IMG/VR virus record: IMGVR_UViG_3300029573_000020
Span: 1 to 38,676 of that record
Reading direction: 5' to 3' (one strand)
Source of the DNA: a virus
DNA length: 38,676 nucleotides
Each line of letters begins with the position of its first letter. Within the stretch, counting starts at the first letter, position 1. A program made the position numbers and the translations under genes. This document shows, in pieces, positions 14,673 to 20,327 of this stretch. Below the pieces are notes generated by a model. That model was not told the origin of the DNA. It saw only the letters and a program-made list of their open reading frames with translations, and did no database searches.

Positions 14673-14930
14673 TCAAGCATTACGTTTCAGCAACCAACGA
14701 AACCAGAAATAGCTTGCAGAAATCATCATCATATTGGCAGCAGCCACTATGGAAGCTTCTTGTACTCCAATTAAAGCCCAAGAAACCATGACAGCTATAA
14801 TGCTTAATACATTTATGCTCAGGCAACACACCCAAAGCTTTTTGAATGCTTGTTCCAGGTCAATGGGTCCGCTTATCGCCGTGCGTCCGCAAAACGGGCA
14901 CACGGTTATTTTCTTTTCTCCCATCACCAT
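14673..14930 (-). CDS. Zinc-ribbon membrane protein (85 aa)
   Basis: CPFCGRT motif, then two hydrophobic helices. TGATG coupling to the antirepressor stop. Confidence 0.4.
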   Translation of the reverse strand: MVMGEKKITVCPFCGRTAISGPIDLEQAFKKLWVCCLSINVLSIIAVMVSWALIGVQEASIVAAANMMMISASYFWFRWLLKRNA

Positions 14931-15694
14931 CACGCCCCGCAAAACTTGTTGATAAAGTACTGCTGGCCTTTGCCGGTAACCTTAGTGGTTTTGCTGACGC
15001 TGACGTGGCCGTCACTGTGGGAAATAGCCGTTTCTTTAATCTTGAACAAGCCCATTTCCATAGCTCTCTGCGTGGGGCTGTTGTAATCTGCTCCGGCACG
15101 CTTAATCAGGTATCCTTGCTCACGCATCCAGTTAAACAAGCGCTTCTGACCAATCGGATGGCCGTTCTGCTTCAGAATCTTCGCAAGGTCACCGATCAGA
15201 ATCGTGCTGTCAGACGCGCTCACCGCATCTGCAAAGAGTACCTTCGGCTTCGCCGCCTGCAAGCTGGCTTCCGCCTGTTGGCGAGCTGCTCTTTCCTCTT
15301 TTAAAGTTGTCGCCAGCTTTATAATCGTGTCCGGGTCAGTTAGTGCCTGCTCAATTTTATCGGCCGTCAGATATCCACCGTGTTTTCTGATTGCCGGAAG
15401 CACCTCGCTGGTCACCCATTCTTGAAAAGCTTCTGCCTTATCGGTTTTCGCTCTCATTACCAAACTGTAAAGTCCGGCTTCATCAATAATTGTAGTTTCT
15501 TGTTTACCTCCAGGGGTGTCCAAAACAGACATACCTTTATGGTTATCTTTTACGTGTTCTCTGACAGCCTTAGCTGTTTGACTGTAACCTAATGCTTGGG
15601 CTACATCCTTACCAACAAACCACGGCTCACCATTTTGCTGAATGGTACGAATCTGACCAAAGTCAGGACTGTTGAAAATTTTAATGTTATTCAC
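14930..15694 (-). CDS. Phage antirepressor (Bro-N + KilA-C/ANT domains)
   Basis: N-terminal IRTIQQNGEPWFVGKDVAQALGY (Bro-N). C-terminal LIGDLAKILKQNGHPIGQKRLFNWMREQGYL (KilA-C). Confidence 0.8.
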   Translation of the reverse strand: MNNIKIFNSPDFGQIRTIQQNGEPWFVGKDVAQALGYSQTAKAVREHVKDNHKGMSVLDTPGGKQETTIIDEAGLYSLVMRAKTDKAEAFQEWVTSEVLPAIRKHGGYLTADKIEQALTDPDTIIKLATTLKEERAARQQAEASLQAAKPKVLFADAVSASDSTILIGDLAKILKQNGHPIGQKRLFNWMREQGYLIKRAGADYNSPTQRAMEMGLFKIKETAISHSDGHVSVSKTTKVTGKGQQYFINKFCGA

Positions 15695-15728
15695 TTGGCA
15701 CCTCTTTTCTTAAACGCCGTCTGTTTTT

Positions 15729-15747
15729 TGTAGACTATTTGTCTACA
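15729..15747. promoter_or_regulatory. Operator copy O2 (TGTAGACT-ATT-TGTCTACA), between the cro-like gene and the antirepressor gene
   Basis: Near-identical to O1. It overlaps the cro-like stop codon and lies 35 bp upstream of the antirepressor start. Confidence 0.55.
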
Positions 15748-15956
15748 TCACAGGCAAAAAAAATTGCTTCTTTTTCACTTAATTTAGAAATTCTAAGCAA
15801 ATCGCACATTTTAGAGATTTCACCAGCGTTGAACGGGACCTCATTGTTAATTTTTCTTTTTAATGTTTGATATGTAACTTTAAGTTCCGCTGCAATTCTG
15901 GCTTTTTTCAATCCGCTATCTGCAATAGCTTTTTCTAATTTGACTGTATCTGTCAC
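15735..15956 (-). CDS. Cro-like XRE-family HTH regulator
   Basis: LKKARIAAELKVTYQTLKRKINNEVPFNAGEISKMCDLL helix-turn-helix. Divergent from the repressor gene. GTG start with GGGAGG RBS. Confidence 0.65.
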   Translation of the reverse strand: MTDTVKLEKAIADSGLKKARIAAELKVTYQTLKRKINNEVPFNAGEISKMCDLLRISKLSEKEAIFFACDVDK

Positions 15957-15972
15957 GTTATCGCCTCCCTTT

Positions 15973-15991
15973 TGTAGACATTTTGTCTACA
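15973..15991. promoter_or_regulatory. Operator O1, the 8-3-8 palindrome TGTAGACA-TTT-TGTCTACA
   Basis: Perfect inverted repeat. It lies between the -10 of the leftward promoter and the cro-like RBS. Confidence 0.65.
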
Positions 15992-15996
15992 TCACT

Positions 15997-16025
15997 ATTA
16001 TATTTCTTTGTTTCCTGTTTGTCAA
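15997..16025 (-). promoter_or_regulatory. Leftward early promoter (PR-like). -35 TTGACA, 17-bp spacer, -10 TATAAT.
   Basis: On the minus strand TTGACA is 16025..16020 and TATAAT is 16002..15997. Both are consensus sigma-70 hexamers with a 17-bp spacer. Confidence 0.7.
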
Positions 16026-16044
16026 CAAAATTTTAGTGATTTTG

Positions 16045-16073
16045 TTGCATTTTTTTCTACACGATGTTACAAT
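16045..16073 (+). promoter_or_regulatory. Rightward repressor promoter (PRM-like). -35 TTGCAT, 17 bp, -10 TACAAT.
   Basis: TTGCAT 16045..16050 and TACAAT 16068..16073. A GTCTACA-like half-site (ttctacac) lies in the spacer. Upstream of RBS AAGGAGAG. Confidence 0.5.
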
Positions 16074-16102
16074 AAATTTAAACAAAAAGGAGAGTGAACA
16101 CA

Positions 16103-16552
16103 ATGACCACTATAGGAGACCGTATAAAAGCACGTAGATTAGAATTAGATATGTCGCAAGATGAATTAGCAAGATTAGTTGGATATAAATCGCGTTCATC
16201 TATCAATAAAATTGAAAGTGACGGCAGATTGCTACCCCAAAGAAAAATTATGGAAATTGCAAATGCGCTTAATACAACGCCAGCATATATTATGGGATGG
16301 GAAGAATCTAACGAAACCGAAGCTCCCTCCGTCCCCCTCACCCCCCGCGATGAACGCCAAATCGCCGCAGACCTCGAAAAAATGCTTGCCGACCTCGACA
16401 GCAAAAACTCTATGGCTGCCATGGGCGGTACCGTTGAAGATGATGAAGACAGAGAACTCCTGAAAGCAAGCCTGCAGGCTACCATGCGACTGGCAAAGAA
16501 AATCGCCAAAGAAAAATACACTCCTAAAAAATATCGCCACGAAGAGGAATAA
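16103..16552 (+). CDS. Phage repressor, XRE-family HTH (ImmR-like). No S24 peptidase domain.
   Basis: MTTIGDRIKARRLELDMSQDELARLVGYKSRSSINKIE HTH_XRE. Acidic C-terminal half. Followed directly by an ImmA-like gene. Confidence 0.8.
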   Translation: MTTIGDRIKARRLELDMSQDELARLVGYKSRSSINKIESDGRLLPQRKIMEIANALNTTPAYIMGWEESNETEAPSVPLTPRDERQIAADLEKMLADLDSKNSMAAMGGTVEDDEDRELLKASLQATMRLAKKIAKEKYTPKKYRHEEE

Positions 16553-16556
16553 TATC

Positions 16557-16976
16557 ATGGATATCAAGGCTGCTGTGAAGCAGCTTACACATAAGCACAA
16601 AACAAATAACCCCTATGAGCTGGCGCAGCTGCTGAACATCATCGTCATGTACGCAGAGCTTGGCAGCACATGGGGCTACTACACTACATATAAGCGTTCC
16701 AAGTTTATCATCATTAACCAGAACATATCCGAAGAATTGCAAGCATACACCTGCGCCCATGAGCTTGGGCACAGTGTTTTACATAAAGGCGTATCGACGC
16801 CATTCCTCAAAGCCCATACCCTTTTCAGCATAGAGAAAATAGAACGGCAGGCCAACACCTTCGCCGTGGAACTGCTCCTGCCGGATGAGCTGCTGCAGCA
16901 GTACCCGGAAACTTCCATTCACCGCCTTGCTGACATGGTAGGCGTGCCGATGGGGCTGGAAGTGCTTAAGAGGTAA
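16557..16976 (+). CDS. ImmA/IrrE-family HExxH metallopeptidase (antirepressor protease)
   Basis: AHELGHSVLH zinc-binding motif. Its position immediately downstream of the repressor matches the ImmR/ImmA arrangement. Confidence 0.75.
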   Translation: MDIKAAVKQLTHKHKTNNPYELAQLLNIIVMYAELGSTWGYYTTYKRSKFIIINQNISEELQAYTCAHELGHSVLHKGVSTPFLKAHTLFSIEKIERQANTFAVELLLPDELLQQYPETSIHRLADMVGVPMGLEVLKR

Positions 16977-16998
16977 AAAGGAACTTGGTAAAAACAGC

Positions 16999-17064
16999 CT
17001 TTTTTACCAAAGACGTCAGGTGTCTTTTGGAAAACGTGCCTTTTTTACCAAAGACGTTAGGCAT
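16999..17064. repeat. Two direct copies of GCCTTTTTTACCAAAGACGT(C/T)AGG
   Basis: Copies at 16999..17024 and 17038..17063 (26 bp, one mismatch). Non-coding, between immA and the first terminator hairpin. Confidence 0.6.
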
Positions 17065-17094
17065 AAAAAAAGACCGCCAGCGGAAGGCTGACGG
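17063..17094 (-). terminator. Minus-strand intrinsic terminator T3, embedded in 48-bp repeat copy A
   Basis: Minus-strand RNA CCGUCAGC-CUUCC-GCUGGCGG forms an 8-bp stem (the plus-strand mismatch becomes a G·U pair) followed by UCUUUUUUUAUG. Confidence 0.55.
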
Positions 17095-17201
17095 CAAGGA
17101 AGAAATTGACGATTTGATTGATGTTAAGCTGGCCAAGCTCCAGCGCAAGGCTGACGGTGGGGAGTTTAGGATAATAGATTTCGAAAGCGAGGAATGAAGA
17201 C

Positions 17202-17996
17202 ATGAAAGATGTAAAATTGTTTCAGAGTGCGCAAATTCGCTCCATTTGGAACGATGAAGCCGGAGAATGGTTCTTTTCTGTTGTCGATGTTGTCGGTGCA
17301 TTGACCGACAGTGCAGATAAATCAGCTTATTGGCGCAAACTAAAGCAAAGAATGAAGGTAGAAGGTAATGAAACCGTGACAAATTGTCACAGGTTGAAAT
17401 TGCTTGCAGAAGACGGGAAAATGCGTCTCACTGACACCGCAAATACAGAAGGTATTCTGCGTATTATCCAATCTGTCCCCTCACCTAAAGCCGAACCATT
17501 CAAGCAGTGGCTCGCGCAACTCGGTGCGGACCATATCCACGACCTTGAAGCAGCAGAAGCCTTCAACAAAGAAATAGACGCTCGCATTGAAGCACGAAAT
17601 AATATCAAACAGCATAACATTGCTCTCGCTGATGCAGCCTTTGCCGCAGGCGTAAAAACGAACCTTGACTTCGCCAAATTTCAAAATAGCGGTTACATGG
17701 GACTTTATGGCGGTGAAACCGCTGGCGATATAAAACGTCGCAAGAAACTTAAACCTAATCAAGAGATTTTAGACCACATGGGCAGTGTGGAACTCGGTGC
17801 GAACCTGTTCCGCATTACGCAGGCAGAAGACAAACTGCGCCGTGAGAATATCAGTAGCAAAGAAGCTGCCAACAAAGTGCATTACGAAGTCGGTCGTACC
17901 GTTCGCAAAACTATTGAAGAACTCGGCGGCACAATGCCAGAGAAATTGCCTACGCCAAGCGAAAGTATTAAGCAGCTCGATAAACCTAAAAAATAA
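17202..17996 (+). CDS. dinD: DinD-like (DNA-damage-inducible protein D family) protein with an N-terminal Bro-N domain
   Basis: N-terminal IRSIWNDEAGEWFFSVVDVVGALTDS (Bro-N). The C-terminal half (QNSGYMGLYGGETAGDIKRRKKLKPNQEILDHMGSVELGANLFRITQAEDKLRRENISSKEAANKVHYEVGRTVRKTIEELGGTMPEKLPTPSESIKQL) closely resembles E. coli DinD as I recall it. Confidence 0.7.
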   Translation: MKDVKLFQSAQIRSIWNDEAGEWFFSVVDVVGALTDSADKSAYWRKLKQRMKVEGNETVTNCHRLKLLAEDGKMRLTDTANTEGILRIIQSVPSPKAEPFKQWLAQLGADHIHDLEAAEAFNKEIDARIEARNNIKQHNIALADAAFAAGVKTNLDFAKFQNSGYMGLYGGETAGDIKRRKKLKPNQEILDHMGSVELGANLFRITQAEDKLRRENISSKEAANKVHYEVGRTVRKTIEELGGTMPEKLPTPSESIKQLDKPKK

Positions 17997-18023
17997 AAAA
18001 GACCGCCAGCGGAAGGCTGACGG
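17988..18023 (-). terminator. Minus-strand intrinsic terminator T2, in 48-bp repeat copy B. Begins at the DinD stop codon.
   Basis: Same hairpin as T3 (CCGCCAGC-GGAAG-GCTGACGG on plus). Followed on the minus strand by UCUUUUUUAUUUUUU. Confidence 0.55.
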
Positions 18024-18136
18024 CAGGGAAGATATTGACGATATTATAGCTGATACCTTTATTGCGTAAAGGTATCTTGTAAACACCTTTAAATTCTCTC
18101 TTTTTTTAAAGGTATCACGGAGATAGCTTTATGGCA

Positions 18137-18167
18137 TAAAAAAGACCGCCAGCTTTTCAGCTGGCGG
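18137..18167 (-). terminator. Minus-strand intrinsic terminator T1, downstream of the moron operon
   Basis: Perfect hairpin CCGCCAGC-UUUUCA-GCUGGCGG on plus. The minus-strand RNA is followed by UCUUUUUUAUG. It shares the ggcataaaaaagaccgccagc prefix with copy A. Confidence 0.65.
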
Positions 18168-18182
18168 AAAAATGTTGCTTCA

Positions 18183-18593
18183 CTATATTCTGCTTTTTAA
18201 AAAAGATGCTCCAATAGAGCCTACCGCAAGGAAACAGGCTCCACCTGCCACCCAAGGTTGACCTAAATATAGAGCGTAGGCAGCTACTCCGATAATGCAC
18301 ACTCCTAAGATAAACGCCATGTACTGACCTCGTTTATCACGCATAGCAGTCAAATCGAGTTCTTTGGCTTTTAATTCTCTTATAGCTTTTGCATTTTCCT
18401 TAAAATCGTTAATGATATCAGATGCTGAACCAGGAACAATGTTATCATATTCCGCTAAAATCTGAGGATGGGGAAGCAATCCTTCAAAATGTTCCGCAAC
18501 AACAATATCACCATTAGATGCAACTCTATTTCTAACTGATTTGTCGTCCTTTGCCGGTTTCGATTGTGCCAATTCTCTTTCCCACCTTATCAA
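18183..18593 (-). CDS. Membrane protein, DUF2335-like (putative). Moron.
   Basis: LPHPQILAEYDNIVPGSASDIINDFKENAKAIRELKAKELDL then two C-terminal TM helices. The start codon is uncertain (TTG; AAGGTGGG RBS upstream of an internal TTG). Confidence 0.45.
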   Translation of the reverse strand: MIRWERELAQSKPAKDDKSVRNRVASNGDIVVAEHFEGLLPHPQILAEYDNIVPGSASDIINDFKENAKAIRELKAKELDLTAMRDKRGQYMAFILGVCIIGVAAYALYLGQPWVAGGACFLAVGSIGASFLKSRI

Positions 18594-18759
18594 TAGATTT
18601 TCTCAAAGAACTGCCCGTCCTTAACCATGCAGCTTTTGAAATTGTACTAGGACTTTGAGGGACAAAATCTGCATAATTAGTATTAGGCATAATGGTAAAA
18701 GTAGAAAAGCCGCACATTACAGAGGCAATAAGCGCTTTAATTTTTGCCAATTTGTACAC
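18532..18759 (-). CDS. Small hypothetical protein overlapping the 5' end of the DUF2335-like gene
   Basis: AAGGAGGTG RBS, then GTG/TTG. Hydrophobic N-terminus. Coding status uncertain. Confidence 0.3.
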   Translation of the reverse strand: MYKLAKIKALIASVMCGFSTFTIMPNTNYADFVPQSPSTISKAAWLRTGSSLRKSIDKVGKRIGTIETGKGRQIS

Positions 18760-18784
18760 CTCCTTAATTATGTTGCACTTGTAT

Positions 18785-18815
18785 ATTGTACCACATTAGG
18801 AAAAACAACTCAATA
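18785..18815 (-). promoter_or_regulatory. Candidate promoter of the moron operon (extended -10 TGG-TACAAT)
   Basis: Minus-strand TGGTACAAT at 18793..18785, with a weak TTGAGT -35 at 17-bp spacing. Confidence 0.35.
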
Positions 18816-19052
18816 TAACTGTGCCCTTGTACACTTAATTTTAACATTTTTCGTTTTAAAAGTAAATTACCATAAGTAAATTTTACAAAGGGTCTGATTT
18901 TAATGTAAAAATCCCCCGGTGCTACCAACACCGAGGGACCTGCAAGAACGTGTTACCAGCACGCTCAACGTCATCAACCCCCGAACCACCAAGAGCTGAT
19001 TACTTTTTTATTATATCAGCTCTGCTCGTAAAATGAAAGGAGCTGATTTTTT

Positions 19053-20327
19053 ATGTCAACATTAAACGTAACAAAACGCGGCGATAAATGGCAGTACCGT
19101 TTCGAAACTGCTTCCGTCGACGGCAAGCGTAAGCGTGTTTCCAAATCCGGCTTTAAAACGAAAAAGGAAGCCGTGGAAGCCGGAACCAGGGCGCTGGCAG
19201 AATACAACGAAAGCGGTCAGACTTTCAATCTTTCCAGCATTTCCGTTGCGGATTATCTGGACAGTTGGATTGATACTTACTGCAAAATGAACCTAAAATA
19301 TAATACCCAGCTTGGCTATCTTTATACTATCGAAAATCATCTGAAGCCCAGCCTTGGTATGTATAGGCTGAAATCTCTTACACCCTCCGCCATTCAGGAA
19401 TTCGTAAATGCTCTGAAGCTGCGTGGTCTCAGCAGGGCAAGCATCGTCGGTATATTCTCCACGCTCTCTGCAGCGCTGGATTATGCTATTGAGCCGTTGA
19501 AGTACATCCAGTATAATCCATGCAATAACGTAAGAATCCCCAAGGATACGGCAGCCAAGAAGGAAACCCGGTACATCATAACACCGGAGCAGTTTAAGCA
19601 GATTTTAGAGCGCTTTCCGGAAGGCTCTAATTTTTATATTCCGCTTATGATCGGCTACTACACCGGCGTAAGAATTTCCGAATGCTTCGGCCTTACTTGG
19701 AATGATGTCGATTTTGATAATAAGACCATAAGTATCAGCAAGGCTTTGCTTAAGCGCAACTGTGGCGCAGATGTAAGGGAAATCCTGAAGAAGAAGGGCA
19801 AGAAGGAAGAGAAAAGCGCCTGGTATTTCAACAGCACAAAAACTTTCAAGTCCAACCGCATCATCAACATCGGTGATACACTCTGTGCTGCATTGAAAAA
19901 AGCTTATGACCGGCAAATGGCCAACAAAGCCTTCTATGACGAATACTACACAAAAATCTACAAAAAGCCGGAGCAGGACGAAAAAGGCGATACCATTTAC
20001 CGGCTCATAGAAATTGAAGCCGGAGTGCCCTGCCCTCTTGAGTCCGTGGATATGATAAACGTAAGGGAGAACGGCCAGCTGCTGAGTATGGACAGCATGA
20101 AGTATTGCAGCCGTGCAATCCACTATGAGCTGAAGATAAATTTCAACTACCATTCACTGCGGCATACACACGCTACAACGCTTATCGAGAACGGTGCCAA
20201 TATAAAGGACGTGCAGGAGCGTTTAGGACACTGCAACATAGAAACAACACTTAATACATATACCCACAATACCGACTACCTGAGAAATCAATCAGTAGAA
20301 ATCTTTGAAAAGGCGGTTCAAAAATAA
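19053..20327 (+). CDS. int: Tyrosine site-specific integrase
   Basis: C-terminal catalytic pattern …NYHSLRHTHATTLIENGANIKDVQERLGHCNIETTLNTYTH (R…HxxR…Y). AAAGGAG RBS. Confidence 0.95.
   Translation: MSTLNVTKRGDKWQYRFETASVDGKRKRVSKSGFKTKKEAVEAGTRALAEYNESGQTFNLSSISVADYLDSWIDTYCKMNLKYNTQLGYLYTIENHLKPSLGMYRLKSLTPSAIQEFVNALKLRGLSRASIVGIFSTLSAALDYAIEPLKYIQYNPCNNVRIPKDTAAKKETRYIITPEQFKQILERFPEGSNFYIPLMIGYYTGVRISECFGLTWNDVDFDNKTISISKALLKRNCGADVREILKKKGKKEEKSAWYFNSTKTFKSNRIINIGDTLCAALKKAYDRQMANKAFYDEYYTKIYKKPEQDEKGDTIYRLIEIEAGVPCPLESVDMINVRENGQLLSMDSMKYCSRAIHYELKINFNYHSLRHTHATTLIENGANIKDVQERLGHCNIETTLNTYTHNTDYLRNQSVEIFEKAVQK

Follow-up and report, generated by a model that had tools for sequence, protein, structure and literature searches.

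In T4-type phages, repeated regulatory cassettes known as promoter-early stem-loops (PeSLs) mediate shuffling (Arbiol et al. 2010, PMC2839356; Comeau et al. 2014, PMC4122927). In temperate phages, defence genes are found downstream of, and sharing a promoter with, the prophage repressor, as in case of lambda rexAB and BstA of BTP1 (PMC8585504), and diversity hotspots of P2/P4 and other phages hold variable anti-phage cargo (Rousset et al. 2022, PMC9122126). The present analysis concerns a DNA stretch of 38,676 nucleotides (IMG/VR virus record IMGVR_UViG_3300029573_000020, positions 1 to 38,676; referred to as the window), in which a plus-strand gene (17202..17996) for a 264-aa protein, which combines an N-terminal Bro-N domain with a DinD-like C-terminal domain, is bracketed by short direct repeats. 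These repeats are likely remnants of a phage repressor gene, namely of its 3' end, that mark the borders of exchangeable accessory-gene cassettes; for the gene between them, the most plausible reading is that of a candidate defence cassette within the immunity operon. While a defence hotspot behind a repressor and PeSL-like shuffling are of kinds already known, the new element would be the duplicated coding tail of the repressor, re-deposited after each cassette.

A repeat search of the window yielded a direct repeat of 61 nt with 89 % identity (copy A, 17066-17126; copy B, 17995-18055), within which the 48-nt core described in the initial annotation has 2 mismatches between the copies. The third, partial copy reported there (copy C, 18136-18153) comprises 18 nt that are 100 % identical to copy B, and a fourth partial copy of the hairpin core with 1 mismatch, overlooked by that annotation, is located inside the tail of copy A (17140-17157). 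The 15-mer AAAAAGACCGCCAGC occurs three times in the window versus 0.09 expected, and 0 of 100 shuffles reach three. The claimed fusion of the gene's stop codon to the repeat is real: the TAA (17994-17996) overlaps the A-run of copy B, which starts within the stop codon. The same holds for the hairpins proposed for the minus strand. A consensus scan placed terminator-like sites at 17095-17073, 18024-18002 and 18167-18146, and at each of them a G+C-rich hairpin directly precedes a U-run, as is typical of intrinsic terminators. The minus-strand folds of A, B and C have predicted energies of -15.2, -15.2 and -20.9 kcal/mol (z -3.7, -3.6 and -2.9), whereas a C-A mismatch weakens the folds of A and B on the plus strand. 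The hairpin of copy A (17073..17095, minus strand) is accompanied by a T-run at 17066-17072, and that of copy B (18002..18024, minus strand) by one at 17995-18001. In the region of copy C (18136..18167, minus strand), a perfect 9-bp hairpin (18146-18167) takes its first arm from the 18-nt repeat and has a T-run behind it on the minus strand.

Related loci were retrieved by exact-protein look-up and protein-anchored retrieval. They include a locus of the same prophage (L001), one with another downstream gene (L002) and 22 IMG/VR contigs harbouring a 98-99 % identical Bro-N/DinD gene in varied contexts. An exact 25-mer of the window hairpin has no match in IMG/VR, the relatives differing by the loop and by TACC for GACC; the GACC common to all three window copies, as opposed to the TACC of most relatives, suggests local homogenisation. 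The repeat belongs to a module of ~113-141 nt, about 141 nt of which stand ahead of the ATG in nearly all contexts of the 98-99 % identical gene. Its layout is AAATACCGCCAGC-loop-GCTGACGGCAAGGAAGAAATTGACGAT...GAGAGTTTAGGATAATAG...GAGGAATGAAGAC-ATG, and a further full or truncated copy begins at the stop codon of the gene. A profile of the module, blind to pieces shorter than the hairpin, gave 165 matches in 83 loci, with at most five per locus and orientation never mixed within a locus.

The origin of the module is evident from these loci. In L013, L012, L005, L008, L016, L018, L060 and others, its first copy forms the in-frame 3' end of an open reading frame (ORF) of 118-134 aa that encodes an HTH_3 repressor. 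The genuine XRE-type repressors of the relatives have the C-termini ...IKKYRQLDADGKEEIDDIIDVKLAKLQRKAEEDVESLG or ...SLSLTQQEETHIKKYRQLDADGKEEIDDIIDVKLAKLQRKAEEDVESLG directly before the stop codon; the hairpin corresponds to the codons YRQLDADG, also recognizable in copy A, and the A-run to the two lysine codons preceding them. An identical tail is found on four different HTH heads, and one head (L012 versus L013) carries two different tails. The tail has been exchanged between heads and is therefore itself a unit of exchange.

Among the unique copies, 66 are complete at the 5' end and 65 long enough to be scored. Twenty of the 65 are genuine, i.e., they continue an open frame of at least 80 codons, and their loops vary mainly by synonymous changes of Leu and Asp codons (Asn replaces Asp in three distant repressors). 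Forty-five are relics, unattached to a repressor ORF and mostly with a stop a few codons upstream. Relic loops are peptide-changing (GGAAG or GCAAG, RK; CGGAT, PD; TATAT, LY; AGAAG, QK), and some copies carry frame-breaking indels or stops. Synonymous-site conservation of the hairpin in genuine repressors has to be read with the ascertainment bias in mind that genome matches were chosen by nucleotide pattern; of the only unbiased cases, L093 and L094, the former keeps the hairpin and the latter has partly lost it. The assumption that truncated copies always retain the whole hairpin was dropped, shorter pieces being present in L002, as the first piece in L013 and as copy C of the window.

Copies A and B of the window belong to the relic kind. 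Copy A, homologous to genuine repressor 3' ends, forms together with the leader and ribosome-binding site of the Bro-N/DinD gene a nearly complete module (17066..17201, plus strand; nhmmer profile positions 2-141, 131.8 bits, 7e-39), the tail of which is rearranged, with the hairpin core repeated at 17140-17163. Copy B (17995..18055, plus strand) is truncated at its 3' end (profile positions 1-58, 40.9 bits, 7.6e-11). The repressor of the window is of the ImmA-associated type and differs from the one ancestral to the repeat; nhmmer detected no module copy in its 3' end.

The initial annotation had pointed out that its interpretation would fail if the repeats were coding. This applies to their ancestry, the last ~38 codons of an XRE repressor gene, but not to copies A and B themselves, which are untranslated relics. 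Present-day translation, either of a 70-aa ORF (16985-17197) or, by frameshifting or read-through at the A-run, of an extended DinD-like protein, is hardly credible. The A-run before the hairpin does resemble a slippery site, a gene caller annotated the 70-aa ORF in L001, and the differences between A and B are conservative in frame (K/R, E/D, L/I). However, the conservative pattern is accounted for by descent from a real repressor tail and as such is not evidence of translation. The 70-aa ORF begins with TTG, lacks a family match, represents the palindromic spacer spliced to the relic, and was not called in L002. Moreover, the length of the A-run and its frame relative to the upstream gene vary, and several relics contain stops or indels, so that conserved recoding is impossible.

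A scan of 185,579 species genomes with the hairpin pattern revealed true copies exclusively in prophage immunity regions, almost all of them in Phascolarctobacterium assemblies (including P. succinatutens CAG:287). Other matches were discarded as chance terminators next to tRNA genes or as an unrelated gene encoding ...KYRQLIADG. The latter was observed in Clostridia metagenome-assembled genomes (L118, L123, L128, L135, L140, L148, L159; ...HTYAAEKYRQLIADG...) and shares 21 specified nt of the pattern, i.e., KYRQL-ADG encoded by these codons recreates the hairpin without a terminator context. Megablast of positions 15700-19100 against 50,697 GenBank phage records gave no match, and no prior description of Phascolarctobacterium prophage defence loci was found in a literature collection that is itself incomplete.

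The loci share a common layout: a plus-strand repressor gene is followed by a repeated unit of one plus-strand cassette and one module copy, then by minus-strand genes (among them one for a HicB-like antitoxin), and finally by an integrase or serine recombinase gene. Family models matched by the cassettes are AbiD/Abi_2, PDC-S22 (a 283-aa KilA-N protein), PDC-S02, PDC-M24A (DUF6978) and PDC-S47/Abi_alpha. Further cassettes in the arrays encode a MazF-domain protein, an NYN-domain protein, a canonical DinD-like protein and the PDC-S13 protein of the window, and in related prophages the Bro-N/DinD gene natively resides directly behind the tail-bearing repressor. The canonical DinD-like gene is split or truncated in L013 (680-1521) and L008 (3936-4283), where it shares its arrays with the Bro-N/DinD gene, so that one repressor can be followed by two paralogous DinD-domain cassettes.

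Mosaic breakpoints between these loci fall within the module. Up to the end of the gene, copy A included, L002 and the window are identical; within the hairpin that follows, the sequence of L002 changes over (TAAAACATACCGCCAGC|AAAAAAATTAG) to that of an Abi_alpha cassette. In L005, the DinD stop codon is followed directly by the module hairpin, and this in turn by the 3' end of the DUF2335 gene. Relative to L005, the window differs by the tail of B, an 80-nt palindrome and the first arm of C, exactly the kind of difference expected to be gained or lost when two hairpins cross over. In L004, L010 and L020, sequence between the hairpin and the internal repeat CCAGCGCAAGGC is deleted, and the tail of copy A displays the reciprocal conversion. 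All four combinations of loop type (TGGAT or GGAAG) with the downstream TTG or ATT variant occur. The second copy of L012 occupies exactly the position of the genuine repressor tail in L016, with identical downstream DNA, and the L012 relic is therefore a decapitated repressor. Several upstream ORFs stop on the module's own TAA (DinD-like, ...KPKK; KilA-N, ...KLQK; immA, ...LKK). A chimeric ORF of L018 (2578-2973) joins the N-terminus of a canonical DinD type (...RYACYLIAQNGDPRK) at KEEI, without a change of frame, to the module of the repressor tail, and ends with ...EEIDDLIDVKLAKLQRKAEEGVESLG before the stop; it arose by recombination within a brief stretch that both partners have in common.

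These observations are compatible with the following course of events. Recombination between phages would have joined the end of one cassette to the A-run/hairpin region of another phage's repressor tail, and crossovers between existing copies would have acted likewise, each event leaving a truncated tail copy between cassettes. With 30-113 nt of homology, the tail copies would permit additional insertions, deletions and replacements, such that arrays could grow, shrink and swap, while new junctions may form by microhomology at the TAA plus A-run. A gene following a tail-bearing repressor is on the same strand and presumably part of the same transcript. In case of the window, copy A would be a relic that arrived with the gene and still provides its leader and ribosome-binding site, copy B would be a truncated relic behind the gene, and copy C, sharing the first hairpin arm, would terminate the convergent DUF2335 unit.

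This scenario resembles that of the PeSLs: in both cases a short conserved, terminator-like stem-loop recurs between variable, non-essential ORFs, mosaic breakpoints lie in the repeats, and recombination between copies explains insertions, deletions and replacements. PeSLs, however, are non-coding combinations of promoter and terminator in lytic phages, with both activities and mini-circles demonstrated, whereas the window repeat is the coding tail of a repressor in the immunity operon of a temperate phage, known so far from its sequence. Furthermore, no plus-strand sigma-70 promoter is contained in copies A or B. A perfect one was only seen in L006, L013, L015, L019 and L023, where a module copy is interrupted after GAAATTGAC by ~150 nt (3880-3975 in L013). 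This insert creates a TTGACA-17-TACAAT promoter, followed by a short transcript-like segment and a GAAGGCCATCG...CGATGGCCTTC-TTT terminator, and may represent a small RNA gene. At a permissive threshold, neither the interrupted module of L013 nor positions 16500-19100 of the window had an Rfam match above the gathering scores; a PyrR match (33 bits versus a cutoff of 54) was taken as chance.

The arrays are also reminiscent of integron cassettes, being composed of mostly promoterless ORFs in one orientation behind one promoter, each bounded by a hairpin-capable repeat. In contrast to integrons, neither an IntI-type integrase nor attC architecture (R''-L''/L'-R', extrahelical bases) is present: the only integrase is of the phage type and has the arm-binding domain usual for phage integration, and the 9-bp hairpin is situated in a coding relic. 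The initial annotation had alternatively suggested a small repeat element that mobilised the gene. A relation of the repeats to gene movement is upheld, but they do not constitute an autonomous element, as copies are found only in prophage immunity regions and in one orientation.

Mobilisation by a miniature inverted-repeat transposable element (MITE), a repetitive extragenic palindromic (REP) sequence or a hairpin recognised by a transposase or recombinase is very unlikely. Such an origin might be inferred from the copies bracketing the gene, and from the combination of a precise 5' boundary in at least 12 contexts with a variable 3' extent, reminiscent of one-ended or hairpin-directed elements. 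Yet the copies lack terminal inverted repeats and target duplications, no transposase or extra recombinase accompanies the arrays, and the sequence is that of a repressor's coding tail. True copies are furthermore restricted to positions downstream of the repressor in one prophage group, with one orientation per locus, while the genome scan gave no indication of the many unrelated sites in both orientations that characterize MITE and REP elements. The repeat is thus regarded, on comparative grounds, as neither an integron component, nor a dispersed mobile repeat, nor part of a moron in the strict sense.

Several points weigh against tail-copy recombination around a defence cassette. The 5' edge of the relics is very precise, at least 12 upstream contexts joining within the A-run before (T/G)ACCGCCAGC. 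Plain homologous recombination alone would not explain this precision, which seems to need microhomology at the TAA plus A-run, one founding event or some site-directed process. Many loci originate from the same few metagenome projects and overlapping contigs, and independent events are accordingly fewer than the match count. The support consists throughout of comparative sequence data, from which mechanism, co-transcription, termination and defence function are deduced, and the PDC systems of PADLOC are candidates rather than validated defences. Finally, the hairpins could have been retained for termination.

In its most explicit form, the last point equals the proposal of the initial annotation that the hairpins are a selected array of antisense terminators (insulators), kept to stop minus-strand transcription from the integrase-proximal genes into the immunity operon, the repressor ancestry being incidental. 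The hairpin prediction is in line with this proposal, since hairpin and T-run exist on the minus strand only at all three sites, and the fixed plus-strand C-A mismatch becomes a minus-strand G·U pair in 63 of the 65 unique copies. In addition, the module hairpin abutting the 3' end of the convergent DUF2335 gene in L005 is the only candidate terminator there, and where the module is missing behind the gene (L011, L016, L018), another hairpin with a minus-strand T-run replaces it. The comparative data argue otherwise and render an insulator array unlikely. The 65 unique copies contain zero compensatory changes, although covariation is uninformative given the near invariance of the stems, and either strand tolerates single changes in the stem to about the same degree. 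Stem diversity in relics (0.03-0.05) is modestly below that of the rest of the module (~0.13, a value inflated by the variable tail), the loop being an outlier (0.33), and conservation of the stems is judged not to exceed that of the remaining module. L002 has a broken hairpin and L024 a modified one, and the full stem is not kept in the distant repressor of L094. Most relics elsewhere precede plus-strand cassettes, such that there is no convergent transcript to stop. With copy C at the end of its minus-strand unit, the window has no further need of A and B as terminators.

Copy C is a probable intrinsic terminator of the convergent DUF2335 operon, and it is the only one of the window copies that is clearly positioned to act as a working terminator, an activity predicted from its hairpin and T-run. 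The relics A and B are probably redundant. Transcription may still terminate at these copies, but selection for termination is not apparent from the comparison. Preference is hence given to the repeats as borders left by recombination.

The composite nature of the 264-aa protein, proposed initially, was confirmed by family searches. Residues 11-106 match Pfam Bro-N (PF02498; 5.7e-13, 49.7 bits versus a gathering cutoff of 25.6), and residues 119-261 align with positions 127-271 of 288 of NCBIfam NF008573 "DNA damage-inducible protein D" (8e-54). The score of this partial alignment (182.9 bits) is below the equivalog cutoff of 242, i.e., the protein is a DinD homologue outside the equivalog family. 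The near full-length match is to PADLOC PDC-S13 (PDLC04920; 8.1e-70, residues 3-244 to positions 6-258 of 286), to which the protein can be assigned. No description of PDC-S13 was retrieved in a literature search, and PDB holds no sequence relative of the 264-aa protein. Distant DinD homologues (35-46 % identity) exist in other phages without the module, and dinD-domain genes are also observed in Streptococcus satellites and Campylobacter phages as well as inside type I restriction-modification operons (PMC9881135).

The C-terminal half of the protein is clearly homologous to that of E. coli DinD, for which inhibition of postsynaptic RecA filaments has been reported (Uranga et al. 2011, as cited in PMC4457935). 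The initial annotation had inferred a RecA modulator tied to ImmA-type induction, and one could conceive that the DinD-like protein acts on RecA to tune induction or recombination of its own prophage. Such a role appears quite improbable, in view of several differences from the E. coli protein and its setting. The protein has Bro-N in place of the DinD N-terminus and scores below the equivalog cutoff, and its gene is prophage-borne. No LexA (Cheo) box (CGAAC-N4-GTTCG, up to 2 mismatches) was found near the gene, which thereby lacks the SOS signature of DinD; in the whole window, 2 such sites compare to 10.8 expected, the Negativicutes motif being assumed to be Firmicutes-like. The 98-99 % identical gene acts as a swappable cassette behind repressors both with and without ImmA, and dinD-domain genes in restriction-modification operons and Streptococcus satellites likewise do not favour a RecA-directed function.

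A defence-type role is favoured because of the PADLOC match and the company of Abi (abortive infection) and PDC cassettes. Most likely, the gene represents a defence-type cassette that the prophage expresses by read-through from the immR-immA promoter, with co-transcription and defence function both deduced from arrangement and family membership. The situation then parallels lambda cI-rexAB and BstA: Abi- or defence-type genes, including one for a KilA-N protein, are arranged directly behind the repressor on the same strand, are probably expressed in the lysogen and occupy a recognised hotspot of mosaic diversity. Those systems, however, have not been described as cassette arrays split by duplicated repressor tails, and in the present case the host belongs to the Negativicutes and defence is putative. 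Similarly, conserved flanks are shared with the P2/P4 hotspots, here formed by the repressor tail (left) and by a ~146-nt segment ahead of the integrase gene (right). Homology in the P2/P4 hotspots is limited to the flanking core genes, whereas here the left flank is re-duplicated after each cassette.

The gene had also been designated a moron. Morons (Juhala et al. 2000) are reportedly accessory phage genes that form autonomous transcription units with their own promoter and terminator. Like these, the Bro-N/DinD gene is an accessory gene between the immunity genes and the integrase gene and is absent or replaced in relatives. In the strict sense the designation cannot be maintained, since a consensus scan, the only method applied here, found neither promoter-like nor terminator-like plus-strand sites flanking the gene (~16977-18180), which appears to be embedded in an operon.

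The gene neighbourhood agrees with the initial annotation. Upstream, the window encodes an ImmR-like HTH repressor (16094..16552, plus strand; Pfam HTH_3, 4.8e-13) and an ImmA-like M78 metallopeptidase (16557..16976, plus strand; Pfam Peptidase_M78, 1.1e-20). These are followed by two direct repeats (16985..17061, plus strand), which are real but measure 36 nt with 83 % identity (16985-17020 and 17026-17061) instead of the 26 bp reported earlier. Each is an A/T-rich palindrome (TTGGTAAAAA-N5/6-TTTTTACCAA), and the pair travels with the 3' flank of immA, being kept right after immA in L002, L007, L009, L020, L152 and L126. It could be an operator pair or a weak structure, the folding signal being weak. 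Between copies B and C, a long imperfect palindrome (18058..18140; inverted repeat with 36-nt arms, 72 % complementary) has fold z-values of -4.3 and -4.4 on its two strands, and among 160 loci is restricted to this prophage (window and L001).

Downstream of copy C, the DUF2335 membrane-protein gene (18183..18593, minus strand; Pfam DUF2335, 9e-11) is the last gene of the convergent minus-strand unit. The conserved ~146-nt segment (18907..19052, plus strand; blastn) forms the right border of the variable region and recurs in more than 30 loci with differing cassettes, at full length with 92-96 % identity in about ten and as shorter pieces elsewhere. It may be the promoter or regulatory region of the adjoining tyrosine integrase gene (19053..20327, plus strand; Pfam Phage_integrase and Arm-DNA-bind_4). 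A second Bro-N protein of 254 aa (14930-15694, minus strand), combining Bro-N with a KilAC/ANT antirepressor domain, is encoded in the early lytic operon; the prophage thus possesses two Bro-N genes with unlike C-terminal domains.

In case of the window alone, the repeats amount to recombination relics around a candidate defence gene, while the family-wide pattern provides a tidy, testable and possibly useful rule. One may tentatively speculate further, with some doubt, that the repressor tail is a universal docking site. Docking at the tail would be possible because every phage of the family must carry it. A cassette together with its tail copy would then be inserted, excised (possibly as a circle) and swapped behind any repressor by short-homology recombination, with hairpin and A-run setting the border, resulting in integron-like, lysogen-expressed defence arrays without a dedicated integrase.

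If the tail copies do drive exchange, temperate phages would possess a simple, enzyme-free route to trade anti-phage genes, and the tail would offer a natural site for engineering cargo into Phascolarctobacterium phages. A search for repressor-tail relics would likewise be a cheap computational handle on new cassettes; those without a known function already include a 335-aa PDC-S02-like protein and a 252-aa MazF-domain protein. The present case also cautions against taking DinD-like phage genes for RecA regulators. For one family of gut prophages, a readable rule emerges: defence-type cassettes would be lined up behind the repressor, and each border in this row would be a copy of the repressor's own tail.

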